Shown here: one piece after another, positions 1-32,300 of the stretch
How positions within the stretch are numbered: position 1 is the stretch's first letter
How the letters are laid out: every line of letters begins with the position of its first letter
From: a virus
Direction: 5' to 3' (one strand)
IMG/VR virus record: IMGVR_UViG_3300020056_002227
Coordinates: 105,743 to 169,742 of that record
DNA: 64,000 nucleotides
Translations under genes and position numbers: made by a program
Notes under the pieces: model-generated
What the model saw: only the letters and a program-made list of their open reading frames with translations
Database searches by the model: none
What the model was told of the DNA's origin: nothing

Positions 1-3000
1 AATTTTGGAACTGCAACTGTTGGTATTACTGGTCAAAACGGCAGATTACATTTACAAGCAAATAAGACATTCTTGCAAGAAGAAGCAATTGCGTACATTG
101 CACAAGAATTCCCCGGCTTTGTTTATGATCAAGCCAAGTGCAGAAGAGATATTGGTTATCTAGTAGATGCAATTTCTTTCGATATTTCTCATGGGTCTAA
201 TACCTCTGCAATCAATTTTGCTAGATTGTATTTCGATAAGGGTATTAGTACACTGCCTGAAAATCAAAAGGCTAAGACCGCAGAGGTTTATGAACACCTT
301 GCAAATGTTGCTTCTAATATTGTACAAGCAATTGGTGTTACACCCACCACAGGCAATGCACAAAGTCAAGATATTGCAAATGCCGATGCTGGAATTGAAA
401 TTGCTAAGAGAACATATGATCTGATGGATCTTACTGCTAAGGTGATCAGAGAGGATACTCTTGATTGGTTGCCAACAGCAATTGAACCCGGTTACAACAC
501 CGTGGCTCAGATGACAGCATCTAATACAATTGATGGAATTACAGAATCACTTCAGGGTGGTGTAATTAAGTACCTCAGAGAATTCCACAACGGTCTTCCT
601 TATAATAAAGAAAAGTGCTACAGAGATGTCGGTCTCATTACCGATGCAATTTCTAAGGATATCGAATACGGTGGAAATGCATCCACAATCGAAGCTGCAA
701 AATATTACTTCACTGTCGATGAAAGACTTGCATCTTCTTATGAAGAACTCAGAACCAAGAACGTTCTTTCTATTCCAGTAACAGGTCAGTTCTCTGTGCT
801 GGATGATCTGGCTGCAGTATCTGGTCTTAGAGAGGCTACAAATATTCTGCCTCAAGAACAGCGTATTCCTACCAAGAGAGCGTTCGAACATCTGGCTGCA
901 ACCGCGGCCTCTATCGTTCAAGAAGTTGCAGTAACACCTACCACAGGTAATGCTCAAGTACAGGACGTATCTGGTACAGCCGCAGATGCTGCTACAGGTA
1001 CAGCAGTGGCAAACCTGTTTAATATTATTTCTGGTGTTGTCGATGATAATGATCTCGACAATCTGACCACTACCGAAGTCAAGCCACTTGCTGATCCTAA
1101 TAGAACAGTTGCTCGTCAGCAGATCCAAATGAACAAAGAGTTCATTATTGATGAGGTTGTTGCTTATCTCAACGATGAGTTCTTCACCTTTGACGGTGAG
1201 AAATGTAAGAGAGATTTGGGCCTGATCATAGATGCAGTAAGACGAGACGTACTGACTGGTTCTGATTTCAATTCAAACTTTAACGGTCAGGCTTATAGGT
1301 CTGGAACTGTAGGTTCGAATTTGGTCATTGATGAACAGCTCACAGAAACCGTTTCTGCTATCAGATATGCAAAAGACCTTTGCGTGAATTCGATCGTCGA
1401 TCCTGCTACGGCAACAATTGCTGCAGCAAGATTCGACAAGATTATCGATATCATGGGTAATGGTACTGCATATTCTAACGTAATTGAATACGGTTTTGAT
1501 TCTGTCACGGCTGAAAGAATTAATGCAAGATCACAGTTACAGCTCAATAGAGCGTTCATCCAGGCAGAAATAACTGCATGGATTGCACTGAATTACGGAT
1601 CACTCACATATGATGTTGCTAAGTGTGAAAGAGACGTTGGCTATCTGGTAGATTCTGTGTCTTGGGATATTCAACACGGTGGTAATACAGCTTCGAGAAA
1701 TAATGCAACACTGTATTTTGAGAATGCTGTAAGCACTCTACCTGAAGATCAACGTGCTCCTACTGCAGCCGCATTTGTTCACCTTGCTGCAGTTGCTAGA
1801 TTAATTGCTAATGGTGATCCTGTCACACCTACAACTGGTAATGCCCAGACACAGAATACTGCTTCTGGTAACTCCGGTGGACCAATTGCAAGTGTTGTAG
1901 AGTCTCTATTCACAATTGTCGCAAATGCAATTCAGCAAAATGGAATCGACGGATTACCTGCTCTTGAAGAGCCTATTGTAACTGCTTATAATCCAGAATT
2001 GCAAGCCGCATATAATTCTATGGGCACAGCAAAGATAACTGCCCAAGACGGCGTATTGCAACACCTTTCTACTTACTTCAATACTCTTTACTACAATGAA
2101 GATAAGTGCAGAAGAGATACCGGCTACATTATCGATGCCGTATCACACGATATTCAATACGGTGGTAATGCTGCTACTGTAAATGCTGCTCACAACTACT
2201 TCCAAAATGCTGTAAGTACATTGCCTCTCAATCAGAGAGAACCTACCAGAAAGGCATTCTTACGCTTGGGTATGGTGATGAATCATATTACCCGCGAGAT
2301 GGAAGTAACACCGACTGTTGGAAACACACAGACTCAATTCTATAACCATGTTGCTGCAAATCCTGCAACAGGCATGTTGGTTGAAGATCTGGTTAAGATT
2401 GTTGCTAATTCGGTTGATGATGCAACTCCGGCAACTACAGCAATTCCTGCAATTGTTGAACCTTCTCAGACATGGGTTTCTGGCAATTACACCAGTGCTG
2501 TAGATGTGATAGAGAGTTCTTCTAAGACATGGGCAGACGGTGTGATCAGTCACATTAGTACCACTTACAACGGATTGAGCTTCCCACGAGGTAAGTGCAG
2601 AAGAGATGTTGGATATCTTGTTGATGCCGTTTCTCACGATGTTCAATACGGTGGAAACTATGCTAGTAGAATTGCGGCAGGAATTTATTTTGAGAATGGA
2701 ATTTCTGTACTCCCAGCAGACACTAGAGTACAAACCGCTGACATTTATAATTTCCTAGGTGTTCTATTGGCTGGTGTTGTGCAAGAGACTGATGTTTCTA
2801 ATACTACACTAACAGATACAGCACAAGATACAAGTGGTACTCCTGCTACTCTAACCGAAGGTACAAGAGTTGCAGAGTTGATATCGATAGTAGAAACCGT
2901 AATTAGAGATGACGATTTAGATGCTCTGCCAATTATGGAAGAGCCAGATACATCTTGGGTTGCGGCAGATCTCATTGCAACAGCAGAGATGATCGATGAC

Positions 3001-4356
3001 AATACCGAAGAGCTGTCAATTGATCTGGTCGAATTCTTAAGAAGAGAATTTGATGTTCTGGATTACAACCGAGATAAGTGTCGACGAGACACTGGATATC
3101 TACTTGATGCATTTAGCTATGATCTGAACTATGGAGGTAATACTGCATCTCGCTGGAATGCTGACTTCTACTTCTGGAATCAGATTTACAGAATCCCAGA
3201 AGATCAGAGAGTACCTACTGCTAGATCTTATCAGCAACTCGGTCGAATCTGTAAAGATGTTGTCCTTGGTAAATACCCAGGTCAGGTCGTCAAGAGTGGA
3301 ACTGGAACCGAGGTAGAATCTAAAAAGGTTCAGGACCTTGCAAACATCTTCTACCTGACTCAAATAAATAACGATACAACATATCTACCCGTAAAAGAAG
3401 AGCCAGATTATAGCTGGATTCCAGATATTGTATCTGATGTGTCATCGATTCTGGAGTTTAATAAGATTGATCTAGCTTTCGATACAGTAAGATATGTAAA
3501 TGCGACATATAAATACATTGATATTAATCTCACACGTAGAGATGGTTTGAATTTGTTGAAGGCCATTGAGCAAGACTTTAAGACGCTCAACCCACAGGGG
3601 CCACCTGCTTCAGATGATTACCTAGAGAACGGAGATAGACAAAGAACCAGAGCATATACAGCTGCATTGTTTGATTTCAATGGTAATCAGGCATTCCCTG
3701 TATTCAATGCTACAACACCTGGTTTGAGGTATCAAAGTTCTGTACAAAGAAGTGCTGGTGATGCAACTGATGTTGATGGTGCAATCCCTCTGGCAGACCG
3801 CAAACCATATTATGCATATATTGTGGCAACAGACTTGAATACAAGTTTCTACGCTGGAGATATATACTATTGGGATGGAACACAATGGATATTTGATGGG
3901 CCAAACAATACCGATCTACTAGATGCCTTTACTGGTGCTTGGGAGAGAATGAGAGATTATCTAGTTACTCTTTCACCAGATGCAGATCACACTGCAATGA
4001 TTAATGGCTTGATCGATGATTGTTTGATCGATAACGTACTAAGACCAGAAACATTGACATTCGGGTCTCTAGTTGAATCGATTGCTCACCAGTTTAACGG
4101 TGCCTCTGCTGGTGTAAACAGAAACGCACTTCCATTGAACTTCCGAAACCTTGGTCTGCCAATCTCGGCACTGGCCTCGGTTCTCTCAGAAGATGGAGGA
4201 CGTGTGAGATGGTCTGGTGCTGATGAATTGAATAACCAGTACTTTGCAAGGGGTTTGAGAATCAACGGTAGAACAGGAAGAATTGAAGGTAGACCATTTA
4301 CCTCATCGGTAAGAAAACTTGCAAGAAGAGCTTCTAACAGCAGAGCTTCAGTATAA
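1..4356 (+). CDS. Large repetitive virion structural protein (5'-truncated) with 7-8 tandem ~160-aa helical repeats bearing a KCxRDxGY...YGGN motif
   Basis: The frame is open from base 1 (NFGTATVG...), so the start lies upstream of the window. KCxRD motifs begin at nt 136, 613, 1201, 1621, 2104, 2593 and 3076, with a degenerate copy near 3529. The gene sits in the late structural region upstream of gp13. Confidence 0.75.
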   Translation, partial: NFGTATVGITGQNGRLHLQANKTFLQEEAIAYIAQEFPGFVYDQAKCRRDIGYLVDAISFDISHGSNTSAINFARLYFDKGISTLPENQKAKTAEVYEHLANVASNIVQAIGVTPTTGNAQSQDIANADAGIEIAKRTYDLMDLTAKVIREDTLDWLPTAIEPGYNTVAQMTASNTIDGITESLQGGVIKYLREFHNGLPYNKEKCYRDVGLITDAISKDIEYGGNASTIEAAKYYFTVDERLASSYEELRTKNVLSIPVTGQFSVLDDLAAVSGLREATNILPQEQRIPTKRAFEHLAATAASIVQEVAVTPTTGNAQVQDVSGTAADAATGTAVANLFNIISGVVDDNDLDNLTTTEVKPLADPNRTVARQQIQMNKEFIIDEVVAYLNDEFFTFDGEKCKRDLGLIIDAVRRDVLTGSDFNSNFNGQAYRSGTVGSNLVIDEQLTETVSAIRYAKDLCVNSIVDPATATIAAARFDKIIDIMGNGTAYSNVIEYGFDSVTAERINARSQLQLNRAFIQAEITAWIALNYGSLTYDVAKCERDVGYLVDSVSWDIQHGGNTASRNNATLYFENAVSTLPEDQRAPTAAAFVHLAAVARLIANGDPVTPTTGNAQTQNTASGNSGGPIASVVESLFTIVANAIQQNGIDGLPALEEPIVTAYNPELQAAYNSMGTAKITAQDGVLQHLSTYFNTLYYNEDKCRRDTGYIIDAVSHDIQYGGNAATVNAAHNYFQNAVSTLPLNQREPTRKAFLRLGMVMNHITREMEVTPTVGNTQTQFYNHVAANPATGMLVEDLVKIVANSVDDATPATTAIPAIVEPSQTWVSGNYTSAVDVIESSSKTWADGVISHISTTYNGLSFPRGKCRRDVGYLVDAVSHDVQYGGNYASRIAAGIYFENGISVLPADTRVQTADIYNFLGVLLAGVVQETDVSNTTLTDTAQDTSGTPATLTEGTRVAELISIVETVIRDDDLDALPIMEEPDTSWVAADLIATAEMIDDNTEELSIDLVEFLRREFDVLDYNRDKCRRDTGYLLDAFSYDLNYGGNTASRWNADFYFWNQIYRIPEDQRVPTARSYQQLGRICKDVVLGKYPGQVVKSGTGTEVESKKVQDLANIFYLTQINNDTTYLPVKEEPDYSWIPDIVSDVSSILEFNKIDLAFDTVRYVNATYKYIDINLTRRDGLNLLKAIEQDFKTLNPQGPPASDDYLENGDRQRTRAYTAALFDFNGNQAFPVFNATTPGLRYQSSVQRSAGDATDVDGAIPLADRKPYYAYIVATDLNTSFYAGDIYYWDGTQWIFDGPNNTDLLDAFTGAWERMRDYLVTLSPDADHTAMINGLIDDCLIDNVLRPETLTFGSLVESIAHQFNGASAGVNRNALPLNFRNLGLPISALASVLSEDGGRVRWSGADELNNQYFARGLRINGRTGRIEGRPFTSSVRKLARRASNSRASV

Positions 4357-4371
4357 AGGATAGAGAAATAA

Positions 4372-4842
4372 ATGTCATATACAACTAAAATAGATCCAGT
4401 AGACGGTACTACGATTATCGTTACTACCCAGGCTCCGGATGCACTACCAATTGGAAAGACCCTGGAGTTGAGTACAGAATGGCAGGTACTTATTGATGTT
4501 CCAAAATTTGAAGTTCCTGAGCTTGTATTCGGTGGTTCTACCACTATCGAACCTGGAATTGGTGAGGTAATTTCTCCTCTCATTGTTGCAAATAAAACAA
4601 GTAATACTGTTGCAATTGATGTGAGAACGCACCGATTCATAGAGCCGGTGCCAGGCCAAGGAAATGAATTTTATCTTATTAGAAACCTTAGGATACCTGC
4701 TTATGATACCATACCAATTCCGCTTAATGGACAGTTTTTTGCTACAGGTGACACATTAGAGGCCAAGGCCAGTGCAAACTTAGCAATTGACTCAACTATA
4801 TCATATACCTTAGGACAAGCGGAAGAGTACGATGTCGACTAG
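4372..4842 (+). CDS. Hypothetical virion-associated protein (156 aa, beta-rich)
   Basis: ORF tightly packed between two structural genes; it overlaps the start of the next gene. Confidence 0.7.
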   Translation: MSYTTKIDPVDGTTIIVTTQAPDALPIGKTLELSTEWQVLIDVPKFEVPELVFGGSTTIEPGIGEVISPLIVANKTSNTVAIDVRTHRFIEPVPGQGNEFYLIRNLRIPAYDTIPIPLNGQFFATGDTLEAKASANLAIDSTISYTLGQAEEYDVD

Positions 4843-7800
4843 ATTTAGATCCATTGGCTCCAAGACCATTACTCTTGGGCAGGGAATACCACAACAGTTT
4901 CCCATTCAATTAGATCCAGCCCCATTTGAGGGTGCCATTGTTTATGCAGATAATGGTACAATTAAACTCTCGAATGGTACGGCGTGGGTTGATGTTGGAG
5001 CAGGGCCTCAAGGTGTCCAAGGTTTTACAGGTACCCAAGGTGTCCAAGGTATCCAAGGTGAGTATGGGCCAGGATTTACAATCATCGGTTCGGTACCAGA
5101 TGTAGACGCAGGTGGTGATCCACAAGCAACTTTAAATGCAGCATTCCCCAGTCCAAATATAGGTGAAGGTGTCATCGATGATACCGACGACGAGCTTTGG
5201 ATTTGGGATGGTACCAATTGGATTAATATCGGTTCATTCCGTGGTGTTCAAGGTCTTCAAGGCACTCAGGGTGTTCAAGGTCTTCAAGGCACACTCGGAG
5301 AAAAAGGTATTCAAGGTACCCGTGGTTATAGAGGACCACAGGGAACCCAAGGTACTCAAGGTTTCCAAGGTGTTCAAGGCTTCCAAGGCAATCAGGGCAT
5401 ACAAGGTGTCCAAGGGCCTCAGGCCTCACAGGGTACCCAAGGTATTCAAGGTAATCAAGGACTTCAGGGTCTTCAAGGTGTTCAAGGACCGCAAGCTTCA
5501 CAAGGAACTCAAGGCTTCCAAGGCAATCAAGGGATGCAGGGTTTCAACGGTGATGATGCTGGATCGGTATATGAATATCGACTACTAAATTCTAATATTG
5601 AGGCTGACCCAGGTAGTGGTCAGATGATTTGGAATTTACCTAGCAACCCAACCGATACTTTCTCCACAACTACAAGAATTTGGATTGACGATGAAGCCTT
5701 CTATGGCGTAAACATGGAAGGAATTTATTCGGCAATCGCAGCAGCAGACTCTGTTAATAAAGCCTACATGAAGGTAACAAAGCGTGGGCAACCAGATGAT
5801 TATGTTGTATTTACTATTCAGGCAATTTCTGATAGTACCGGTTACTGGCAATTAGATGTAACATTTATAGCCGGTAATGCAATCAGAGAGAATTTCGTTG
5901 AAGAAACATCACCTGGTGTTTTTACTTCTTATCCTCTACTCGTAGATTTTTCTATCAGTGGTGATAAGGGAATTCAAGGTGATCAAGGCACCCAAGGTTT
6001 CCAAGGACTACAAGGACCTCAAGGTCCACAAGGAATGCAGGGAACACAAGGTGTTCAAGGTGTCCAAGGCCCACAAGGGCTTACCGGTAATCAAGGTACC
6101 GTTGGTGCTTACGGCGGTGTAACATTTAGATACGAGTATAATGCTCTCGATGTAACTAATACAGACCCCACACCCGGATTCTTAAAGGGTGATAATGCAA
6201 TATTAGGTAATGCTACTGAATTATACATTGACGTCACTGATGCTGATGGTGTTACCATTAGTGCAATGCTTGCAGATTTCTATGCGTCTTCAAATCCAAA
6301 TAGTAAGGGCTATTTGAAACTGGCAGATGCATCCAACGTCTATAATTATGCTCTCTTTGAGGTGACAGGTGGTAACCTTGTAGGTACTGCTGGAACTGGA
6401 TATCACGCAGTAGCAGTAAATAGTCTTGTTACAGGTCAAACCTATTCTAACGGTACAGATTTCCGAATCTCATTTATAAGAACTGGTGATCAAGGCATAC
6501 AGGGCAATCAAGGTACTCAGGGTATTCAAGGTTTCCAAGGTTCACAGGGTACTCAAGGCTTCCAAGGATCTCAAGGGACTCAGGGTATCCAAGGTGTTCA
6601 AGGACCACAAGGTCTTCAAGGTACTCAAGGTTTCCAAGGAACACAAGGCACACAGGGCATTCAAGGATTACAGGGTGTACAAGGTTCCGTTGGTGATTTC
6701 GGTGGCCTTACATTTGATTATACATTCGATTCTGCGACCACTGATGCAGATCCTGGTCAAGGTAATTTAAGGTTTGATAATGCTGCATTTGATTCAGCAA
6801 CTAAAATGTATATCGATGACCTCGATGATGCAGCTAATGATCTTTCTCCACTCTTCACGGAACTTGACATTAATGCAAGTGGTGTAAAAGGCCTGTTTAG
6901 AATTATTAATGCAGCCGATGTTACCGAGTTTGCTACATTCAATTATACAGAAATCACAGATTCTACCGGTTATCATACCTTTGATGTAGCCCACATTGCT
7001 GGTGTAACCTCGTTCACAAATGGCGCAGATATTAGAATTACATTTGTTCGAACTGGAGACCCAGGCCCTCAGGGTGCTCAAGGTTCTCAAGGACCTCAGG
7101 GTACCCAAGGTTTCCAAGGTGTTCAAGGGCTACAAGGTATCCAAGGTACACAGGGCATCCAAGGCACACAGGGCATCCAAGGTATGCAAGGTACCGTAGG
7201 AGATCACGGTGGACTTTCTTGGAATTATCTCTTTGATTCAAATACAAGTTCTGGATCGGCCCCAGTTGCAAATAGCTGGAAGATTGATAACTCCAATATA
7301 ACGCTTGCAACGAAGCTTGTCATCGATGATATTCCAGATGATGCATACAGCAACGAATTAGATGACTTCTTTACCTATCTTGGTGCAATACCCGGTTCTC
7401 CAAAGGGTCATATTCTTATTGAGAGCACAGCGGATAACGATGGACCTGCAGGTCATCACTTTGTTGTCTACGAGTTTACTGCATTTAACTGGGATAGTGC
7501 ATCTGAATTATACGGTATCTTTGATGTAAACTACATTGCATCAGGAGCTGTAACAAGTAATAACTGGAATAACGTAGAGTCCGATCACGGCCCAGATACA
7601 CTGGTTCACTTTATTCCGGCTGGACCACAAGGTACTCAGGGACCACAAGGTACTCAAGGATTTACTGGTATTCAAGGTGGTGCAGGTGCCTCCGGTGGTG
7701 TAACATTCGAATATGAGTTCGATACAGATACTGGCACTTCTCTCTTAGGTGCACCTGGATTATTGAAGTTCAACAATGCTTCTCTATCTTCAGCCACTGA

Positions 7801-10285
7801 AATGAGAATCAGTGATACTACTCAGAATGGTGCAAACCTTGATACACTTCTGAATAATTATATTCTGAACAACCCAGGGCCCATCAAAGGCTTTTATAAG
7901 ATCATTTCAATTAATGATCCTACGAAATATGTTGTTTATTCTATTACTGGTGGATCAAGCACTCTCACACAATTTGTAATAAACAGTACATATGTTACAG
8001 CCTCTACCGGTGCTGATGCTACATATTTTGGAAACAACCCAGCGCTATTCATTACCTTCAGTAGAAATGGAGATGACGGGCCACAAGGTGTTCAAGGTTA
8101 TCAAGGTACTCAGGGCATTCAAGGTATTCAAGGTATTCCCGGCCAAGGCACACAAGGTTTCCAAGGTACTCAGGGTATTCAAGGTGGCCAAGGTGATCAG
8201 GGTGAAGCTGGTGCCTTCGGCGGTGTAACATTTGACTATACATTCAGAACTGATACGAATCTAACTTCGGTCGCCCCCGGCGAAATAGAGCTCAACAATG
8301 CAGCTGCAAATATTGCCACACAGATGGCAATTCACCACAGGGACGATAACTTTATTGATATCAGTCAATATTTAGCTACGATTGATGATTCTACAAGCCC
8401 CATTAAAGGACACTTTAGAATCTCAGAAGTAGGCACACCATCTAATTTCGTTCTCTTCACAATAAGTTCGATGACCGTTGGTGGTAGCTTCAATACCATA
8501 ACCTGTTCATATGTTGACGGGTCTCTTGGTTCCGGCACATTTACAGACCAGGCAGATGTTGTAATTACATTTGCTCGAACAGGTGATCAAGGGCCTCCTG
8601 GTGCTCAAGGAGCTCAAGGACCTCAGGGTACCCAAGGTTTCCAAGGTAACCAAGGTATTGCTGGAGACGGTAATCAAGGTACTCAGGGACCTCAAGGTTT
8701 CCAAGGTACCCAAGGCTTTACTGGTGGCCCAGGTGACGAAGGGCCACAAGGACCACAAGGCCCTCAAGGATTCCAAGGTATTCAAGGTTTTGAAGGTAGC
8801 CAAGGGCCTTCGGGTGCTGGTTCTCAAGGCCCACAGGGAATGCAAGGAATGCAGGGTGTTCAAGGCTTTGTAGGATCTGGTGGTGATGGTAACCAAGGAC
8901 CTCAAGGTTTCCAAGGAATGCAGGGAACACAAGGGGTTCAAGGTTTCCAAGGTATTTCTGGTGGTGATGGACAACCAGGTGGCCCAGGTTCTCAAGGGCC
9001 TCAGGGCACCCAAGGTATCCAAGGTACTCAAGGTATCAGTGGTGATGGAGGCGATGGATCACAGGGTGCTCAGGGACCACAAGGTTTCCAAGGTATTCAA
9101 GGTATTCAAGGTATTACTGCGTCAGGTGGTGTAGGGCCGCAGGGACCACAAGGTACTCAAGGTGTTCAAGGTATACAAGGATTTGGCCAAGAAGGTGGTC
9201 AGGGTACTCAGGGTTTACAAGGACTACAAGGTATACAGGGGCCCCTTGGTACTGCAAGTACCGGCGCACAAGGTATGCAGGGTACTCAGGGCTGGGAGGG
9301 CCCTCAGGGTTCTATAGGGATCGGTGATCCCGGTACACAAGGCCCTCAGGGTATTCAAGGTATCCAAGGTTCACAAGGTACTACAGGCTCCGGTGCAGAT
9401 GGTTCTCAAGGCTTCCAAGGGACACAAGGTACCCAAGGCTTTACGGGTGCTCAAGGTAATCAAGGTTTTACCGGAGCAGGAGATGTTGGAGCTCAAGGTG
9501 CTCAAGGCCCTCAAGGTACTATTGGTCTCACTGGCTCACAGGGTGCTCAAGGATTTGAAGGCGCAGGTGATGAAGGCGCTCAGGGACCACAAGGTACTCA
9601 GGGCATACAAGGTGACTTTGGACCACAAGGTACTACTGGTGCGGGTGCTCAGGGTGCTATTGGTTTCCAAGGATTCACTGGTTTCCAAGGTACTCAGGGC
9701 TTTACAGGTAGTGCAGGTGCTTCAACATCTATTGATGTACAAGATGTTCATACCTCTGGTCTTCAAAGTACCGACCTACTCGTAACCTTTGTTCAAGGCG
9801 GAACCGGTAATAGACCTTTGTATGCTACACTGACACCCAACCCAGCACCAAGTGCCGGTGCTCAGAATTTCCTATACAGAGCTGACCAAGATAAACTATC
9901 AGTAGAGAATATCTTTGTTGGAGGCACAATTACTCAAGATACTGGTGCTTCATGGACTGCTTCAGATGGTACTTTAAATATAACCGGAAGTCTTGAAGCT
10001 TCAAATGATTTGATTACAGCTTCTGATGCAAGATATAAAGAAAATGTTATTGATATCGAAAATGCCCTAAGCAAGGTCTTGGCAATGAGAGGTGTCAATT
10101 ATAACATGATAGGTGATGATACACAGAAAATTGGTTTGATCGCACAAGAAGTGCAAGAGGTCATACCAGAAGTTGTATCTAATAATAATGATAGACTTGG
10201 GGTTTCATACGGTAATATAGTCGCACTATTGATCGAAGCCATTAAGGAGCAACAGGCACAGCTTGACGATTTGAGAGGTAAGTAA
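4832..10285 (+). CDS. Collagen-like tail fibre (Gly-X-Gln repeats interrupted by globular modules) with a C-terminal peptidase S74 intramolecular chaperone
   Basis: Long G-X-Q tracts. Repeated globular modules begin GG(V/L)TFxYxF..DPG.G. The C-terminal SDARYKENV..ALSKVLAMRGVNY..IGLIAQEVQEVIPEVV..VSYG followed by a coiled coil is the S74 signature. Confidence 0.9.
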   Translation: MSTRFRSIGSKTITLGQGIPQQFPIQLDPAPFEGAIVYADNGTIKLSNGTAWVDVGAGPQGVQGFTGTQGVQGIQGEYGPGFTIIGSVPDVDAGGDPQATLNAAFPSPNIGEGVIDDTDDELWIWDGTNWINIGSFRGVQGLQGTQGVQGLQGTLGEKGIQGTRGYRGPQGTQGTQGFQGVQGFQGNQGIQGVQGPQASQGTQGIQGNQGLQGLQGVQGPQASQGTQGFQGNQGMQGFNGDDAGSVYEYRLLNSNIEADPGSGQMIWNLPSNPTDTFSTTTRIWIDDEAFYGVNMEGIYSAIAAADSVNKAYMKVTKRGQPDDYVVFTIQAISDSTGYWQLDVTFIAGNAIRENFVEETSPGVFTSYPLLVDFSISGDKGIQGDQGTQGFQGLQGPQGPQGMQGTQGVQGVQGPQGLTGNQGTVGAYGGVTFRYEYNALDVTNTDPTPGFLKGDNAILGNATELYIDVTDADGVTISAMLADFYASSNPNSKGYLKLADASNVYNYALFEVTGGNLVGTAGTGYHAVAVNSLVTGQTYSNGTDFRISFIRTGDQGIQGNQGTQGIQGFQGSQGTQGFQGSQGTQGIQGVQGPQGLQGTQGFQGTQGTQGIQGLQGVQGSVGDFGGLTFDYTFDSATTDADPGQGNLRFDNAAFDSATKMYIDDLDDAANDLSPLFTELDINASGVKGLFRIINAADVTEFATFNYTEITDSTGYHTFDVAHIAGVTSFTNGADIRITFVRTGDPGPQGAQGSQGPQGTQGFQGVQGLQGIQGTQGIQGTQGIQGMQGTVGDHGGLSWNYLFDSNTSSGSAPVANSWKIDNSNITLATKLVIDDIPDDAYSNELDDFFTYLGAIPGSPKGHILIESTADNDGPAGHHFVVYEFTAFNWDSASELYGIFDVNYIASGAVTSNNWNNVESDHGPDTLVHFIPAGPQGTQGPQGTQGFTGIQGGAGASGGVTFEYEFDTDTGTSLLGAPGLLKFNNASLSSATEMRISDTTQNGANLDTLLNNYILNNPGPIKGFYKIISINDPTKYVVYSITGGSSTLTQFVINSTYVTASTGADATYFGNNPALFITFSRNGDDGPQGVQGYQGTQGIQGIQGIPGQGTQGFQGTQGIQGGQGDQGEAGAFGGVTFDYTFRTDTNLTSVAPGEIELNNAAANIATQMAIHHRDDNFIDISQYLATIDDSTSPIKGHFRISEVGTPSNFVLFTISSMTVGGSFNTITCSYVDGSLGSGTFTDQADVVITFARTGDQGPPGAQGAQGPQGTQGFQGNQGIAGDGNQGTQGPQGFQGTQGFTGGPGDEGPQGPQGPQGFQGIQGFEGSQGPSGAGSQGPQGMQGMQGVQGFVGSGGDGNQGPQGFQGMQGTQGVQGFQGISGGDGQPGGPGSQGPQGTQGIQGTQGISGDGGDGSQGAQGPQGFQGIQGIQGITASGGVGPQGPQGTQGVQGIQGFGQEGGQGTQGLQGLQGIQGPLGTASTGAQGMQGTQGWEGPQGSIGIGDPGTQGPQGIQGIQGSQGTTGSGADGSQGFQGTQGTQGFTGAQGNQGFTGAGDVGAQGAQGPQGTIGLTGSQGAQGFEGAGDEGAQGPQGTQGIQGDFGPQGTTGAGAQGAIGFQGFTGFQGTQGFTGSAGASTSIDVQDVHTSGLQSTDLLVTFVQGGTGNRPLYATLTPNPAPSAGAQNFLYRADQDKLSVENIFVGGTITQDTGASWTASDGTLNITGSLEASNDLITASDARYKENVIDIENALSKVLAMRGVNYNMIGDDTQKIGLIAQEVQEVIPEVVSNNNDRLGVSYGNIVALLIEAIKEQQAQLDDLRGK
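5003..9720 (+). repeat. Collagen-coding 9-bp-period repeats (caaggt-nnn) in several blocks
   Basis: Pervasive CAAGGT/CAGGGT triplet periodicity encoding Q-G-X. Confidence 0.95.
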
Positions 10286-23354: not shown

Positions 23355-26300
23355 ATGGCAAATGATAAAAAGTTTATAGCCAAAAATGGCCTATTGACTC
23401 CACAAAAAGCGATCATTGGATCGACTACCGATAACGGTGTAGATGAATTACAGGTTACCGGAACAAGTAATCTTGCCGGTGCTGTAACAATTGAAAACGC
23501 CACTGCATCTACGATATCACTTGAGGTCGAAAACACTGGTGCCGGTGGCTTTACCCCAACAGCAAATATTGCTAAATTTACTGGTGATATAGATTCACTC
23601 TCTATTCAAAATGTGATAGGTGGTTCTTATCGCATTACCAATCCGGGCAATAACAATAGAATAATTTTTTATAATAACACATCTGGCATTGATATTCAAT
23701 ATGCTGGATCAAGTCGTCTTGCAATAACTTCCACGGGAAATGATTTCTCTGGGTTGAATACCACTACTATCGATGGTAACAGAATTATCACGGTATTAGA
23801 TCAGGCAAGTCAAGGTGGTTCATTTGACGCTGCTACTCTTGATCAATTAGACTCCACACAATTTGTTCGGTCAGATGAATCTGACACAATGAATGGTAGT
23901 TACATCATTACAGGCGACCTCACAGTCAGTGGTAATACAACCTTCATTAACACGGAACAATTACTTGTTGCAGATAACATCTTCACTCTTAACTCGGACT
24001 TCACAACTGGAAACCCGACCGAAGATGCTGGAATGGAAATCCGTAGAGGTGGTCAAGCAAATTCTTCGTTTGTTTGGGATGAAACGAATGATTATTTCAA
24101 ACTAATTTCTGCTGGAACAGATCTTGGTCGTATCATCACCACTGCTGATGAGGGCCCGGGCAATGGATTTGATGCAGACACCGTCGATGGCTTGCATGGA
24201 TATCAATTCTTAAGATCAGACGTCGACGATACCGCAAATGGCAATATTACAATCCTAGGTGGATTGACGGTTGGAGATGGTAACGGCCCTGCTCGAATCG
24301 ATATGAACGGTTCTGGTCAGGCAAGAACAATCTACACAAATAACGGCGAGATTGGTTTCCTCAATTCTGGCTATAACTGGGCCGTTAAATCAGATGCCAA
24401 TGGTGATCTTGAAGTAGAACGCGATGTTGAAGCAGGCAGAGATGTACTAGCAGATGGTGATGTTACTGCTCAAAATAATATTACTGCAACCACTGGAAAT
24501 ATTACTGCTACTGCTGGTTCTATCTCTGCTGCAACCACTGTAACAGCCGGTACAGATGTTATAGGTCAACGATTTGTAGATGCTGACGATAATGCTTACT
24601 ATGCTGATCCGGCAAGTAATTCGATTTTTAGTGGCCTAGGGTTAGATGATAATCTTTTCCATAACGGTGATACAGATACCAGACTACGATTCGAAACCGA
24701 TCACATCAAATTAGAAACTGGTGGTAACGTTCGATTCGATGTTAATAATTCAAGAGTATTGGCTTCACTCGACACATATGTCCCTAATCTTGTAGTCAAT
24801 GATGCAATCATTCATAATAATGATACAGATACTCGAATTCTTTTTACCACTGACGTTGTTCAAATTGATACGGGTGGTAGCACAAGATTACAAGTAGATA
24901 ATGCTGGTGTAGATATATTCGGCAATCTCGACGTTACTAATACAGCAACTGCAAATACAGTAATAGGTCTCACCTCGATGAGATCGCCGATTTACTACGA
25001 TACAGATAATGATTCATATTTCGGTAACTTTGCTGGCACATCGGTGATGAATGATATCAGCATCGATGATTATATTTCTCATAATGGTGATGCTGATACA
25101 TATTTCGGTTTTGTTGGCCCAGATCAAATCAGATTTGCTACGGGTAATGCACAAAGACTTTATATTAGTAATAGTCAGATTGAATCTTCGGTTTATTTCT
25201 ATGCTCCAAGATTCGTTGATTTGGATAATAACAGTTATTATGTTGATCCAAACAGCACTTCTATTCTATCAACGGTTAATGTTGATGACTGGTTGCAACA
25301 TATTGGTAACGAAGATACTCGCATAGGCTTCCCTGCAACTGATACGATCAATATACAGACTGATGGTTTCACAAGATTTATTGCCAATAATAGTCAGGTA
25401 ACAGTAACCACCGATCTCAAAGTAGACGGTAACATTATCTCTGGTGGTGACGGCATCTTTGACGGTGACGTATACGCATCTAAATTCATCGATTCAGACG
25501 ATAATAATTATTACGCAGACCCAAATGCCACATCCGTGATGAAGACAGTTGGCATCGATGACTACATCGTACATAATGGTGATTCTGATACCAAGATTGG
25601 ATTCTTAATGAATGATACTCTGCAAATGGATGCAGGTGGAACGACAATTTTCATCGCGCAATCTACTGCAGCAGAATATTACGTCGACCTTTATGGTGAA
25701 GATGCCTATTTCAGAACATTCTACGATAATGACAATTCTGCTTACTTCTTGAATCCAGCCGAAACGGGCGTTTCTTTGAATGTTGCTGGTCTTGTAAGAA
25801 CAGGAAACGGATCCGCAGCAGGCCCGGCCTATTCATTCGGCAGTGATACCAATACCGGCATGTATCGAAAGGGAGCCGATCAGATTGGATTCTCGGCTGG
25901 AGGTAACGAAGAGTTAGTTGTTTACAATAACAGAGTAGAGGCACCGGGTGAAGTTAGATCCCCTATCTTTTACGATTTAGCCACTCCAGCATATTATGGT
26001 GACTTTGCCTCAACATCTCAAATGAATCGTATCGATATCGATGATTATATTCGCCATCGAGGTGATACCAATACCTACATGGGATTCGATGCAGCAGATA
26101 GTTGGGGTGTTTGGGCCGGTGGCACGAAGAGATTAGGTATTGATACTGACTCAGCAGACTTTACTGTTGATGTATACGCACCTAAATTTATTGATAGCGA
26201 TAATAACAGTTACTACCTCGATCCTGCTGATACAAGCACATCTGCCACATTGAATGGTAAGGTGTTAATCGGTAATGTCTCCGATGCTGCAAGATGGGAT

Positions 26301-29300
26301 GACAACACGGGTAACGGTGGCATCTCGTTAATGAATCATGGTTCATATGCTTCGGGACAAAATACAACTGTAGGAATCAGTGGTAATTACGCTGGTGGTT
26401 ATTCATTGATGTATCTCAATAGAATTGATCCTAACACAAATCCTTTCAATGCCGGCAATAGATACATTCATTTTTACCATGATGGAAATCAAGGTACAAA
26501 TTTAAGTGGTGACAGTAGTGGTAATCTCTATTGGTTGATGCTAGCCGGTACATCGCAATCATACTGGACACAAGCAGGATCTACTATATTTACTATCAAT
26601 GATAATGGTAATCTTGTTGTCGGGGGTAGTAGCCCAACGTATACAGACGGAGGTGACAATACACCTCTTACTGCAGCAATCAATCCTGCTAAACTGCACG
26701 TCAATGGATCTATCTACCTCAATGGTGCTAATGACGGTATTATCTTCGGTAGAGGAACTGCGTCATTCTTAAGAGATGAAGAACTAGGATTTGGGTGGGG
26801 CGGTGGTTGGTATATGACCGATGCTACCTACTTGCGTGTTCGAAATAATAAGGCTGTTTATTCTGGTGGAGATGCGTATTTCAATCGTTATTATGATACA
26901 AACGCAACAAGCCGCTGGATAGAGCCAGGTGGTGGTGGTATCCTCGCTGGTAATTTTGAGTTTGCAGCTACAGATACTGGTACATCTTATTCGACTGCTG
27001 CTATTGAACTTCGTGAATCTAACTATACTGGTAACGGTACTGCTACTCCACCTCGCATTTCTTGGCACTGGGGCGGTGTTGTTGCTTCACAAATGGCTAT
27101 CGAATCGTCTGGCCGCATTGTTGTCAGAAACAATCCCGGTAATGGTTATGAGGCGTTTGGTGCTGGAAATATCTATGGTACAAAATTCTGGGATATAGAC
27201 AACAATAACTTTTCATTTGAACCCAATGTATCTAATGCTTGGAGATTACAGACTCCAACCGGCTACCTCGATTTTGGTTCAATGAACGCTAGTTATCTTC
27301 ACTTCCAAACAGATAGGCCAGCATTCTACTTTAACCAACCAGTAAGTTTCGATGGTAATATTGCTGGTTATGGTGGTAATGAGACTGCATCGTTTGCTCG
27401 ATACTACGATAGTAATGATACCGATTATTGGGTAGACCCTCATACATTCTCGCGGATGAACGGTATCAATTTCGGTATACCAGGAAATGGAACAAATACC
27501 AAAGGCCGTTACCTTTCAATTGAAGGTAATACTGACGGAAGTGGGGAAGGTTCTTCAAGGATCTTCTTTGCAGAGCATAACAGCACGACAGGTTCAATGT
27601 CTGCTTACGGCATGTCTCTTGGTTATAGAGGTGGAGCTACAAGTATTGTTGGTGGTGATGGAAATACATGGACGGGCTTAAGTCAGATCAATAACGGTGA
27701 ATGGGGTCTATGGGGCCACAATGGTTCTGCCATTGGTTCATGGGCAATGAAAGGACCAAGAGACGGCACCTATGTTGTTGCCTCGGGTTCATTCCGTGCT
27801 CCTATTTTCTATGACTGGACAAGCTCTTCTTGGTACGTCAATCCAGACGGTGATTCAAGACTCAATACAATTACTCTTGATGGTAATGCTGTACAGCTTA
27901 GAGAACCCACTGGAAACTATGGTTCATTCATGGTTGATGGTGGTGCTAGAGGTGGTTACGAAGGATTCTCAATCGGTGGCCGTGTTGTCTTTATGCACAA
28001 CAATGCATCGGCTTCTGGTATTTACGACGATGTTAATAACCAATGGATGGCAAGATTTAATCTTGGTTCTAATGTCGATCTCCGCTATGCTGGTGTTGTA
28101 CAAGCAGAAACTGCAAACGGTTATTTCCTTGCTAATAATGAGATTCGATCACCAATCTTTAGAGACACGACATCGCCTACTACATGGTTCGTAGATCCTT
28201 CGGGTACTTCTCGAGTCAACACACTGAGAACAAATCGAATTTATCCCGCGTACGATAATGACACAAGCATTTATATCGACTATGTTGGTGGTGATTATGG
28301 ATCACTTCAGATTAATGGTGGTGGTAAAAACGGTTGGAGAGGTCTATCTCTTCTAGGTCAATTCGTATGGATGACACCTGGTGATGGCGCTCGAAACGGC
28401 ATCTATAACGACATTGATAATCAATGGCAACAGCAATGGTATCGTGGTGCCGGTTCAATATTATATTATGCAGGCGGTTCACAATTCTCAATTGAAAACG
28501 GTTATGCTCTCGCAACAAATCAAATGCGAGCTCCAATTTACTATCCACCATCTACTACCTCCTATTATCTGGATCTTGATAGAGGAAATACAAATCAGGC
28601 ATTGAGAGTCGGTGGTATCATAGAAAGAGTTGGATTCCAAACCTCTGGTGATGGTAACAATAACATTTTCAATCGTGCTCAAGATTATTCTCATTGGATT
28701 TGGCAGACAGCAACTGATTGGGGTATTTTCTGGGCTGGAAACAACAACCCATATCGTTCATATTTCAGTACCTCAAACCCGAATGAAATCGTCTTTATTG
28801 GTAATGGTAATCTCAGAGCTTCTATTGATCTGGATGATGGACGTGCTCACTTTACAGGTAATGTTAGTGCTCCAGACTTTTTACTAAATGGTGGCAATGA
28901 AGATATATCGTTGAACCCAGCATATGGTTCTGGTGGTGCGGATCTTGTACTCTTTGATATGACACCATATTTTGAGGCTCGTGTTACTCGAGTTTTGAGG
29001 GGAGCTGAAAACAATTTAACTGGTACGACATCTGAATATGTTAAAGGTGACGGACCATTTGCCGGTTCTTATGTTCTCCAAACATCTAATTACCGTACAT
29101 TCTATTCTGATTATATTCCAGTTGTGCCAGGTGAAGATCTGTACGGTGAAATTTCTCATAGAGTCGTTTCTGGATCTGGTGGTAGACTATACTACGGTAT
29201 CGAAAGATTCGATAAAGATAAGAGACCGATCGCAGGCAATACAGGTACTACATACTTCGTAGCTGGTGGTAGCATTTATACGAACACTACTTGGCAGACA

Positions 29301-32300
29301 CAAAGAGCTCATACAACTCTTCCAACCAGCCACACACCATACAATGGATCAGACGGTGGTGGTGTACACTGGGTAAGAATTCGAATTCTAATCAACTACA
29401 ATTCCGGTGGTGCTCTTAGACAGATCGGTGGCATTATGCTTAAACGGCGTAATGTTGAGTCTAATTTACTCGTCGATAACATCGTAGCAAATGACATTCT
29501 TGCAGATGATATTACTGCCGATAATGTTGATGCATATCGATTCAGAGATCGTGATGCGACTGGATATTATGTTGAACCTGCTAACATAACCCAATCTGCT
29601 CGTTTCAGAGGTCAAACCTACTACGGGCCGAATGCTACTTGGGGCGCTTACTTAACGGTTGGTGGCGACGGCCGAAACGGCTATATCAATAGTGGTACTG
29701 CTTCTGTTGCTACTACAAACGGTAATTTACACCTTGATTCTGGATCCGGTTACAATACCTACATTAATTACTATGACGGAAGTAATATTTACTTTGGTAC
29801 TGGAGGCAACGCAACACATTCAGTATGGGAAAGTAACGGTGATCTTAGAATTGGTGGTTCCGGTTCCACGGCCGCTTCAGGATTTAAGCTTCATGTAGAT
29901 GGAAACACTTATGTAAATGGTAATGTAAGAGCTAATAGATTCGAAGACACTTCGTCTCCTAGTAGTCGGTACGTTGACCCTGCTAGCACTTCACAAATCA
30001 ATCGACTTAATGTTAATGAAATTAAGTCTTTCCCGAGTCCACAATACGGACAACTTTTCTTTGATCACAGCGGCATCGCATACCCCAGTGGAAGAAGTCA
30101 GGTAGTTGGTACAGGTCTAGGAATTTACTCTTCTTATAGTGGAGGTTCCGGCAATCCATTTACTTACGACATTACAGCGTCTTTCAATAATAATGGAAAG
30201 GCATTTGAAATTGCAGCCGACTGGATTAATACGAACAGAACACCTCTATTAGTAAGATCTCTTAGAGATTGCTGTCAGAACTGGACACCTTGGACACAGA
30301 TTGCTACATCAGGTGTAGAATTCCTTACTGGTGCTGGAATCAAGGCTCCATGGTTTGCAGATAGCGATAATGATTTCTATAGAATGGATCCAGCCAGTAC
30401 CTCGCAAATTAATGCCATGAATATGCGTGGCACATTGAATATGGAGTTCGGCGCACAGATCAACTTACGTGCACCAGGTACGAACAACCTTCGTGGTTAT
30501 ATTCAGGTACGAGACTCGAACGACGGCCACTTAAGAATTGCTACCTCGGGTGGTGAAGATATTCGCTTCATGGATGGCGGCCTCGATGGTCAATGGAATA
30601 TGATTATCAGAGGCGATGGTAATACTCTGATTAATAACTACATTGACGCTACAAGATTCAGAGATCGTAATGATCCATCCAATTACTATGGTGACTTTGC
30701 TTCTACATCGATAATGAATCAGGTCGACGTAAATCGAATTAGAAGTAGAAATTCAACCGGTTACTTCTGGGATGGAAATGAAGACCTTGCGATGTATGTC
30801 TATGGTGAGATTTCTAACTCTAACTATGCAACCGGTAATTTACAGCCAGGTGCTCTGAATATTGGTCGAACAGATCGTAACTATAGATTTACTGGAGACG
30901 GTGGAAGTTGGGCAGGTGATATTCGTGCTGGAATCTTGGCCAACTGTTCTGAATACTGGGAATTTGCACTTCATGACTCAGGTCGATCTGTTGAATCCCT
31001 TTTGTATTATGATACGGCAAACATTCACATTGGTCGAAATATTGGCTGGGGTACTTCTCGTGTAATTCATCCGGGTGGTACGGCATCTACTATCTATACG
31101 GATTGGACTAACACTGGTTATTACTTGAACCCTGAAGGTCTCAATGATTCGAATATTAATGGTGTGAATAACCGTACATCGGCTATGATGGGCATGCCTG
31201 GGCATACAAGAAATTCAGGTTATTATTACAGAGCAAGACCGAGACAAACTAGTAATACCGACTATTGGACAGGTGCCTTTGGTTGGGGTCGTATCGACAT
31301 GAACCAGGTTGCAACATGGGGTTCTGGCTTTATTGATTCTTGGAGTAATCCACCTAACCAACCTTCGGGTACATCTCACTGGGTTGGTGCTCAGGCCTTC
31401 CACTATAGAAATAGTAATACATCTGGTTATGGCTGGCAGATGGTTGGTGGTCCCATTGAAGGATTGAGATTCCGTTCCTCTTGGCCAAGCTGGAGATCGT
31501 GGAGAAATATTGTAGTAGGTGGTGTCAACGATGGCTCTGCTGCCGGCACGATTTACGCACCTAGATTTACTAATACAACTAATACCGGCTATTATGGTGA
31601 CTTCGACACAACGTCAAGAATGAATGTTATTGACATTAACGAAGGGTATAACTACGGCTGGTGGAGAAATAGAACCTCAGGTCGCGGCTTATATAGCCAG
31701 GCAAATGGCAGACACTTCTATAGCCCGGGCAACGTGTATTGGCATATCGATGGTAGAAGTGATGTTGGTGGCCTTATTTTCTACGATCGTTATAATAGTT
31801 CACAGGGCAGTGGTACAGGTCGTCGTGGTTACGTATACTACGATGGTTCCGGCTTCGGTCTTTTACACAGCGGTGGAGGCTGGGCAGTTCGAACAGTTTC
31901 TGGTACTACAGAACTTTATGGTAATGCCTATGCTGGAACATTCCGAGCAAATATCATCTATGATCGTGACAACGGTGATGGTTGGTATTGGAATGGTGGC
32001 GGTACTTCTAGGTCTAATGTAACAATTACCAATACGAGCTATTTTAGTTCAAATACGAATAGAGGTTATGCGGAAGGTTACGGTACCAGAGGTTCCGCAC
32101 TGCGCAGAATATCCTATATTTCGATGAACAACGGAAGCAGTGCTTGGAATAGCTATAACTATCACGGTATTGCATCTACTAACTCATCTAATAACTTTGC
32201 TGATAGTATATCGATTAACTCTTACAATGATATTACTATGCGGCTTGATTCGAATAGCAATAATACAAACAGCTATCTACGAATCATGGATAATACTGTC

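Follow-up and report, generated by a model that had tools for sequence, protein, structure and literature searches.

We analysed a 64,000-nt window (positions 105,743 to 169,742 of IMG/VR virus record IMGVR_UViG_3300020056_002227; G000:C1:105743-169742) from an uncultured marine T4-like myovirus, whose record is 169,742 bp long and estimated to be 77% complete. The window opens inside a giant gene, which occupies G000:C1:100610-110098 and encodes a protein of 3162 amino acids (aa); reading frame +1 is open from the window edge across nucleotides (nt) 1-4356, and the window holds the 3' part of the gene (1451 codons plus stop) and cuts off its 5' part. The middle and C-terminal two thirds of this protein form a string of 11 globin-type domains, and these repeats, the subject of this report, are very probably true but distant homologues of phycobiliproteins with a conserved candidate site for a bilin pigment. 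A first-pass annotation, made from the letters and the translated frames, had called a virion protein of phycobiliprotein-like domains at nt 1-3600, an extent that has to be widened on both sides: the frame runs on to nt 4356 and begins upstream of the window edge. The features within the window share of the gene are as follows.

1-4356, plus strand: giant fibre-type open reading frame (ORF), 3' part, matching PHROG 'tail fiber' and 'short tail fiber' families
52-522, plus strand: repeat R5, type B (Cys codon at nt 139-141)
529-1110, plus strand: repeat R6, type B, helix F being followed by an insertion of ~35 aa (Cys codon at nt 616-618)
1117-1530, plus strand: repeat R7, type A, 138 aa, modelled in silico (Cys codon at nt 1204-1206)
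1537-2013, plus strand: repeat R8, type B (Cys codon at nt 1624-1626)
2020-2502, plus strand: repeat R9, type B, 161 aa, likewise modelled in silico (Cys codon at nt 2107-2109)
2509-2985, plus strand: repeat R10, type B, holding the string quoted in the first-pass annotation (Cys codon at nt 2596-2598)
2992-3480, plus strand: repeat R11, type B, the most diverged (Cys codon at nt 3079-3081)
3454-3585, plus strand: vestigial half-repeat, first two helices (3.1 bits, no Cys)
3586-4353, plus strand: C-terminal non-repeat region of ~256 aa, no family match

The motif KC.RD occurs at window residues 46, 205, 401, 541, 702, 865, and 1026 (n = 7; spacings of 159, 196, 140, 161, 163, and 161 aa), and KCxRD repeats number 11 across the full 3162-aa protein. 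These positions and spacings agree with the first-pass annotation, which had counted seven repeats plus one degenerate copy, 140-196 aa apart, and had quoted the string KCRRDVGYLVDAVSHDVQYGGN, found at window residue 865 in R10. Two subtypes can be told apart: type A, of ~139 aa (R1-R4 and R7), and type B, of ~160 aa (R5, R6, and R8-R11), the latter marked by a conserved VTPTTGNAQTQ loop between the last two helices. The eighth copy in the window is the vestigial half-repeat, which covers profile positions 2-47 only, lacks the Cys, and retains R-R-D together with an Asp 14 residues on. In a profile search of the whole 169,742-bp record, repeat domains were confined to the giant ORF.

Upstream of the window, the giant protein carries pentapeptide repeats at its N-terminus (PF13599), a beta-helix-like region, R1-R4, and four beta-rich inserts. 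The inserts, each of ~110 aa, interleave R2-R4 (G000:C1 ~103600-105400; P0002 residues ~1000-1590); judged by eye from the translation, each starts with Y-T-P-T..A-T-Y-D-P, ends with H-T-F-V-S-A, and holds a conserved F-T-C or F-E-C. An extra weak match (E = 0.004) to the last helix region of the repeat profile lies between R3 and R4 at G000:C1:104681-104866 and may be a remnant of a further repeat. At the other end of the protein, the C-terminal region has no family match (Pfam at E ≤ 1; PDB sequences) and is presumed to be the distal or assembly part of the fibre.

The relationship to phycobiliproteins was assessed by profile-profile comparison of 117 phage repeats (the 11 of this phage and 106 non-redundant ones from 80 related viral loci) with 29 authentic phycobiliproteins from five cyanobacterial genomes. 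hhalign gave a probability of 83.9% (E = 7.8e-6) for the full set and of 80.3% (E = 1.4e-5, 108 columns) for the 53 type-A repeats alone. The real alignments scored 39.5 and 40.0, against 11-12.5 for reversed phycobiliproteins and at most 24.6 in 20 column shuffles. The type-A alignment is collinear from helix B to the C-terminus, where the F-D motif of the repeats falls on the invariant Asp155 region of phycobiliproteins. In both runs, repeat Cys30, Arg32, and Asp33 align exactly on Cys84, Arg86, and Asp87 of the bilin site, which bears out the gapless motif match that the first-pass annotation had claimed from a phycocyanin alpha string, itself near an authentic phycocyanin-alpha sequence that we fetched. 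Invariant Tyr60 of the repeat likewise aligns on the near-invariant Tyr119 of phycobiliproteins.

Relatives of the giant protein at E ≤ 0.001 numbered 1234 among 7999 candidates scored. A precomputed PF00502 label was present on 15 of the 120 homologues listed, and all 12 that we scanned, picked from these 15, exceeded the curated Pfam cut-off of 22.2 bits (24.9-50.1 bits); their matches extend over as much as positions 27-153 of the 155-position profile. The window protein itself matched nothing among PDB sequences at E ≤ 10, the window region matched no phage record by megablast, and an NCBIfam scan of four repeats was empty.

Predicted structures point the same way. AlphaFold2 (AF2) models of R9 (predicted local distance difference test, pLDDT, of 87.5; predicted template modelling score, pTM, of 0.83) and R7 (pLDDT 85.2, pTM 0.81) were each aligned to 48,161 representative chains. 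Phycobiliproteins or ApcE took the top six places for R9 and the top seven for R7, with Z of 9.6-13.3 and root-mean-square deviations (rmsd) of 1.8-3.0 Å, bearing in mind that Z below ~13 can reflect an arrangement common in helical proteins. R9 came closest to phycoerythrin (Z 12.2, rmsd 2.5 Å over 129 residues), with allophycocyanin at Z 11.4 and an ApcE domain at Z 10.3, while R7 came closest to allophycocyanin (Z 13.3, 2.1 Å over 109 residues, 19% identity) and the bilin domain of ApcE (Z 13.2), followed by another five phycobilisome chains ahead of any non-phycobiliprotein. The next structural matches were heme sensor globins, RsbR, and biliverdin-binding photocobilins (Z 8-11.4). Foldseek also ranked phycobiliproteins first for both models (the top nine rows for R9), with probability up to 1.00 and template modelling (TM) scores of 0.5-0.69.

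Both models retain helices B, E, F, G, and H, with Cys-x-Arg-Asp on helix E; the alignments start at phycobiliprotein residue 40-44 (58-60 in ApcE numbering), and the repeat unit itself starts at helix B. The all-helical, globin-type domain proposed from the sequence is thus also the predicted one, and its nearest solved structures are phycobiliproteins. Because structure ranking, sequence statistics, and motif register agree, we accept the homology, with a high degree of confidence.

The putative pigment site is strongly conserved. Searching 261 homologous giant proteins with a hidden Markov model (HMM) of the 11 own repeats produced 2921 domain hits, and 2729 of those span the motif region. 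Across these 2729 repeats, retention reaches 98% for the Cys, 97% for the Arg, and 99% for the Asp, values that carry some ascertainment bias from an HMM that itself holds the motif (3 of its 148 positions). Other well-kept residues, counted from the motif, are Asp at +14 (99%), Asn at +20 (87%), Tyr at +30 (99%), and Thr at +46 (92%). The Cys on which the first-pass annotation had founded its proposal is therefore well conserved among homologues. Each domain has one conserved Cys and no partner Cys inside the domain. No profile column has His as its major residue in the 2729 repeats (highest value 23%, at one position), and heme binding was rejected as a candidate on the absence of a conserved column equivalent to the proximal histidine on helix F of heme globins.

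The family is large and the array old. The repeat matches 821 clusters at 50% identity among 1.84 billion representative proteins, and domains are strung 11 to 34 per polypeptide. In a maximum-likelihood tree, built with no outgroup from the 29 phycobiliproteins (trimmed of their first 38 residues) and 45 of the 117 phage repeats (11 own and 34 random ones, cut to 140 residues), a branch of ~4.4 changes per column, supported at 100/100, separates the two sets. Type B forms a clade (100/99) within a type-A grade. The repeats of this phage pair with their positional counterparts in diverged relatives, which implies that the array is old. Recent capture of a host phycobiliprotein gene was considered and rejected, as the phage domains form a long-branch clade of their own, nested in none of the phycobiliprotein subfamilies, and pair by position. 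Since the repeats lack helices X, Y, and A, have a short loop before the Cys, and belong to a separate lineage, we do not file them as phycobiliproteins; they are a new branch of the bilin-binding-globin group, relatives of the canonical phycobiliproteins and not members of them.

At 23-28% identity, the repeat family was also found in 89 phage records, all of them Synechococcus or Prochlorococcus phages, in proteins annotated as tail fiber, short tail fiber, or virion structural protein. We examined co-occurrence with bilin genes in the 16 cyanomyovirus genomes of Sullivan et al. 2010, using the repeat profile and Pfam models and counting repeats as clear when there were at least three matches with a best E ≤ 1e-6. 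Clear repeats were present in 13 of the 16; P-SSM2 and S-SSM7 had one marginal match each and S-SM2 had none. Bilin reductases were found in 7 of the 16, namely in 5 of the 13 genomes with repeats vs 2 of the 3 without, and showed no association with the repeats (p = 0.55). The virion acceptor that the first-pass annotation had offered as a general explanation of phage PebS and PcyA is thus not supported in this sample.

An association was found instead with cpeT, which encodes a bilin-lyase homologue. A profile search detected cpeT in 11 of the 16 genomes, all repeat-positive; CpeT-like genes are listed for 12 of the 16 in Table 3 of PMC3037559; and the union of the two, 13 genomes, is exactly the 13 with repeats. 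One-sided Fisher tests gave p = 0.018 for our search, 0.007 for the published table, and 0.0018 for the union, an association that may rest on a single evolutionary event. P-SSM2 (NC_006883.2), S-SM2 (NC_015279.1), and S-SSM7 (NC_015287.1), the only three of the 16 genomes without clear repeats, also lack cpeT; according to the portions of PMC3037559 used here, the three share a lipopolysaccharide (LPS) gene cluster.

The association extends to gene order. T4-GC 734, a giant gene with repeats, follows cpeT at a distance of 1.4 kb in S-PM2 and 0.7 kb in Syn1; both genes are on one strand, and a 2-oxoglutarate (2OG)-Fe(II) oxygenase gene separates them. Viral contigs yielded 21 loci with this type of cpeT (56-100% identity), 20 of which have repeats in a giant ORF beginning 0.8-2.4 kb downstream of cpeT in the same orientation, which, these phages being related, amounts to conserved synteny and not to 20 independent events; the 21st locus ends 189 nt after cpeT. 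PMC3037559 says of the cyanophage bilin genes that their role 'remains a mystery', and it calls the role of phage cpeT 'unresolved'. A separate observation concerns the S-PM2 record (NC_006820.1, 162500-177000), where sixteen tRNA features lie inside the 11.3-kb 'short tail fiber' coding sequence (T4-GC 734) under the same locus tag, which looks like a conflict of annotation coordinates.

In the phage under study, the giant gene lies inside the late structural block, after homologues of gp53, gp25, and gp6 and a fibre gene with an S74 chaperone. On its 3' side follow a collagen-like fibre gene, fibre-assembly genes, three more giant fibre-type genes, and genes for neck, terminase, sheath, tube, portal, and capsid. 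The giant protein matches PHROG fibre families at E = 1.9e-60 and 2.8e-56 and is of the baseplate- or tail-fibre type; from its gene context, it may be part of the virion. Replication genes are T4-like. For the capsid protein, identity reaches 66-67% with Methylophilales and Sinorhizobium phages and ~64% with cyanomyoviruses, and psbA was not found in the 77% of the genome covered; with a capsid protein about equally near three phage groups and no psbA, the phage is not a typical cyanophage.

At window positions 4832-10285 (plus strand), an 1817-aa fibre has collagen-like G-x-y tracts alternating with ~100-aa globular units and many PHROG tail-fibre matches; its C-terminal end may be an intramolecular chaperone of the S74 type. 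A second giant fibre-type gene at 23355-33395 (plus strand) encodes 3347 aa, of which only the last ~130 residues match known fibre families, and a profile search found no phycobiliprotein-like repeats in it. At G000:C1:61221-64215, an NAD-dependent epimerase gene sits between two genes for TET-associated glycosyltransferases (PF20691), and a UDP-glucose dehydrogenase-like gene follows just downstream, a cluster that suggests sugar hypermodification of the phage DNA.

The genome search proposed along with the first-pass annotation turned up part of what it had sought. Genes for a heme oxygenase and a ferredoxin-dependent bilin reductase, the latter nearest to PcyA (PcyA/PcyX-like), are adjacent in the record, and a 5-aminolevulinate synthase matches TIGR01821 with 566 bits against a cut-off of 338.55; this tetrapyrrole-to-bilin gene set is unusually complete for a phage. 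No lyase of the CpeT, CpeS, or HEAT type was found in the 77% of the genome covered. On the minus strand at G000:C1:4068-9285, the 5-aminolevulinate synthase gene has a DUF454 gene beside it and a serine hydroxymethyltransferase (SHMT) gene ~3 kb off (4068-5108, 8089-9285); glycine for the Shemin step could come from SHMT.

The heme oxygenase and reductase genes lie 62 kb upstream of the giant gene and are thus not clustered with the repeats. One related record (G014) has this pair at the same spacing from the giant gene, oriented as in the record of this phage (G000), so that the pair occupies a syntenic position in both of the two informative records, the only ones extending 61-62 kb. Among 28 records with the giant gene, reductase and heme oxygenase were each found in one, the same G014, and psbA in none; absences in these fragments are uninformative, as none but G014 reaches the position 61-62 kb away. 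Conversely, repeats were found in none of 15 reductase-bearing records of at least 20 kb, a search in which the own genome was detected as positive control; these fragments, too, fall short of that position and are equally uninformative. A related-locus search for relatives of the heme oxygenase in genome contigs returned nothing. The gene set matches that of a phage group described in PMC11480375, whose phages are proposed to infect alphaproteobacteria. That paper calls the purpose of hemO and the bilin reductase enigmatic and brings up BBAGs as just a possibility; what hemO and pcyA/X are for is a matter on which its authors 'can only speculate'.

Taking these lines together, we give roughly even chances to the candidate function that the sequence suggests, namely that the repeats bind bilin. 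On the model of phycobiliproteins and of the globins BBAG-1 and BBAG-3, each domain would carry one linear tetrapyrrole (bilin), held by the Arg and Asp and linked to the Cys by a thioether. The present phage would make the pigment with enzymes that it encodes itself (5-aminolevulinate synthase, heme oxygenase, and a PcyA/PcyX-like reductase), and attachment would be autocatalytic or would involve an unknown lyase. In cyanomyoviruses, the host would supply the pigment and the orphan CpeT-like lyase of the phage would attach it. The virus particle may thus carry a bile pigment.

Several results weigh against bilin binding, against the homology beneath it, or against a place in the virion. The whole protein scores 20.2 bits against PF00502 (E = 6.4e-4), under the Pfam cut-off of 22.2, and Pfam finds no family at E ≤ 1 for the window protein. 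Run against PDB sequences at E ≤ 10, the profile built from the own repeats (n = 11) picks up just a coronavirus S2 construct and YvfG, and not one phycobiliprotein. For neither model does a Foldseek E-value fall below 0.13, and the structural Z scores carry the caveat noted above. Helices X, Y, and A are missing from the repeats, and the loop before the Cys, which in phycobiliproteins wraps the bilin, is ~13 residues shorter. To these are added the lack of a recognisable lyase in the 77% of this genome covered, the lack of association between reductases and repeats, the case of P-SSM2, which encodes PebS and heme oxygenase and has just its one marginal repeat match, the chance that a single event lies behind the cpeT association, the relatedness of the phages that share its synteny, and the S-PM2 homologues T4-GC 830 and 734, which bear no proteomics flag in the supplement of PMC3037559. 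The Cys in that study was alkylated with iodoacetamide, and standard searches, which presuppose this form, would pass over Cys peptides with a bilin.

The most sceptical interpretation is that an unrelated five-helix bundle happens to carry C-x-R-D, by convergence or chance. Identity to phycobiliproteins is indeed low (15-19% in hhalign, 8-20% in the structural alignment rows), Foldseek gives no match at E ≤ 0.001, the repeat profile has no phycobiliprotein match in PDB sequences, and the ESM Atlas returned just WXG100-type rows at 0.79-0.83, which are unrelated, weak, and below a meaningful level. Coincidence is nonetheless hard to reconcile with PF00502 passing its curated cut-off in 12 of the 12 scanned homologues, with profile-profile scores far over those of the reversed and shuffled controls, with an alignment that is collinear from helix B to the C-terminus and has the motif in register, and with independent structure searches that put phycobiliproteins first for both repeat types; already disfavoured, it strikes us as very improbable.

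A more serious competitor, though one we hold to be clearly less probable than bilin binding, is that an ancient phycobiliprotein-like globin was recruited as the spacer module of a long fibre, in which the repeats would be pigment-free structural beads. What would then preserve Cys-x-Arg-Asp is its part in folding, a salt bridge between Arg and Asp, or the formation of inter-chain disulfides by which the fibre stiffens on reaching oxic seawater, and the single conserved Cys without an intradomain partner fits inter-chain bonding. The shortened bilin-wrapping loop, the loss of helices X, Y, and A, the want of a lyase in the covered part of this genome, and the 8 of 13 repeat-bearing cyanomyoviruses without a reductase of their own all fit such beads as well. 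They account less readily for the 97-99% conservation of precisely those three residues with which phycobiliproteins contact their bilin (as given in the parts of PMC10151467 cited here), for the bilin-lyase homologue whose gene adjoins and co-occurs with repeat genes, and for three tetrapyrrole/bilin enzymes in this phage that have no other known acceptor. A ligand of another kind, such as non-covalently held biliverdin, a different tetrapyrrole, or a host-surface molecule, would make the fibre an adhesin or a scavenger (e.g. one that handles iron or heme). Globin folds can cradle ligands of many kinds, heme sensor globins, RsbR, and photocobilins are the next-best structural matches (Z 8.5-11.4), and iron supply is discussed as a role of phage heme oxygenase in the available portions of PMC11480375. 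Yet the repeats have no conserved His column to serve as heme ligand, a near-invariant Cys is hard to explain without covalent chemistry, and phycobiliproteins outrank every heme globin in both structure searches, and we regard such a ligand as improbable.

If the repeats do bind bilin, the leading guess for its use is a light-responsive fibre that gates adsorption. According to the sections of PMC6628666 used here, P-HM1 and P-HM2 fail to adsorb in the dark, and likewise S-PM2, whose light-dependent adsorption is independent of host photosynthesis and has no known sensor, whereas P-SSM2 and P-SSP7 adsorb in the dark. Clear repeat matches number nine in S-PM2, four in P-HM1, and five in P-HM2, against one marginal match in P-SSM2 and none in P-SSP7, a comparison of five phages, two of them near-identical, that is a lead and not a test. 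The fibre might be a bilin-loaded photoreceptor on the virion that changes in the light and so gates adsorption, an idea we consider rather unlikely as it stands; the photoprotection or light sensing named in the first-pass annotation is likewise speculation. Were it true, a photoreceptor fibre would explain light-dependent adsorption of cyanophages that is independent of host photosynthesis, the orphan phage cpeT would be the dedicated lyase of the fibre, and 5-aminolevulinate synthase, heme oxygenase, and PcyX in perhaps non-cyanobacterial phages would supply the chromophore.

The repeats would add a new and very abundant branch to the phycobiliprotein family, with the putative pigment site under strong selection. 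They offer a testable candidate for the roles of cyanophage bilin genes, of phage cpeT, and of hemO and pcyA/X in the phages proposed to infect alphaproteobacteria, and even if pigment-free they would be a striking reuse of an antenna fold as a virus building block. A full-text literature search, with most subscription journals outside it, found no account of phycobiliprotein-like domains in phage structural proteins.

Phycobiliproteins are the antenna proteins of cyanobacteria and algae, in which the X-Y hairpin and helix A serve alpha-beta pairing. With them and with the ApcE domain, the phage repeats share the globin-type core of helices B, E, F, G, and H (rmsd 1.8-2.5 Å over 107-129 residues), Cys-x-Arg-Asp at the same place on helix E, the aligned Tyr, and the C-terminal F-D motif. 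Unlike them, the repeats are without helices X, Y, and A and so should neither pair in the alpha-beta manner nor assemble into discs; they also stand in tandem, 11-34 per chain, in a structural gene block and form their own long-branch clade. The giant fibre proteins of cyanomyoviruses (S-PM2 T4-GC 830 and 734; PHROGs 4527 and 5342) have the same repeat family, giant size, and baseplate or fibre place; they have been named by position alone, and a relationship to phycobiliproteins is not mentioned in the records or papers examined.

BBAGs, the phycobiliprotein paralogues of heterotrophic bacteria described by Rockwell, Martin and Lagarias 2023 (PMC10151467), provide the third comparison, made here from their description. 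In the parts of that paper drawn on, CXRD is the chromophore motif of phycobiliproteins, BBAG-1 and BBAG-3 carry it and bind bilins without lyases, and phages are mentioned just for PcyX. The phage repeats share CXRD with BBAGs, and the genome also encodes a heme oxygenase and a PcyA-family reductase. Unlike BBAGs, which by that account belong to bacterial bilin-biosynthesis clusters, the repeats are strung in tandem inside a phage gene for a giant fibre-type protein, with the bilin genes 62 kb away.

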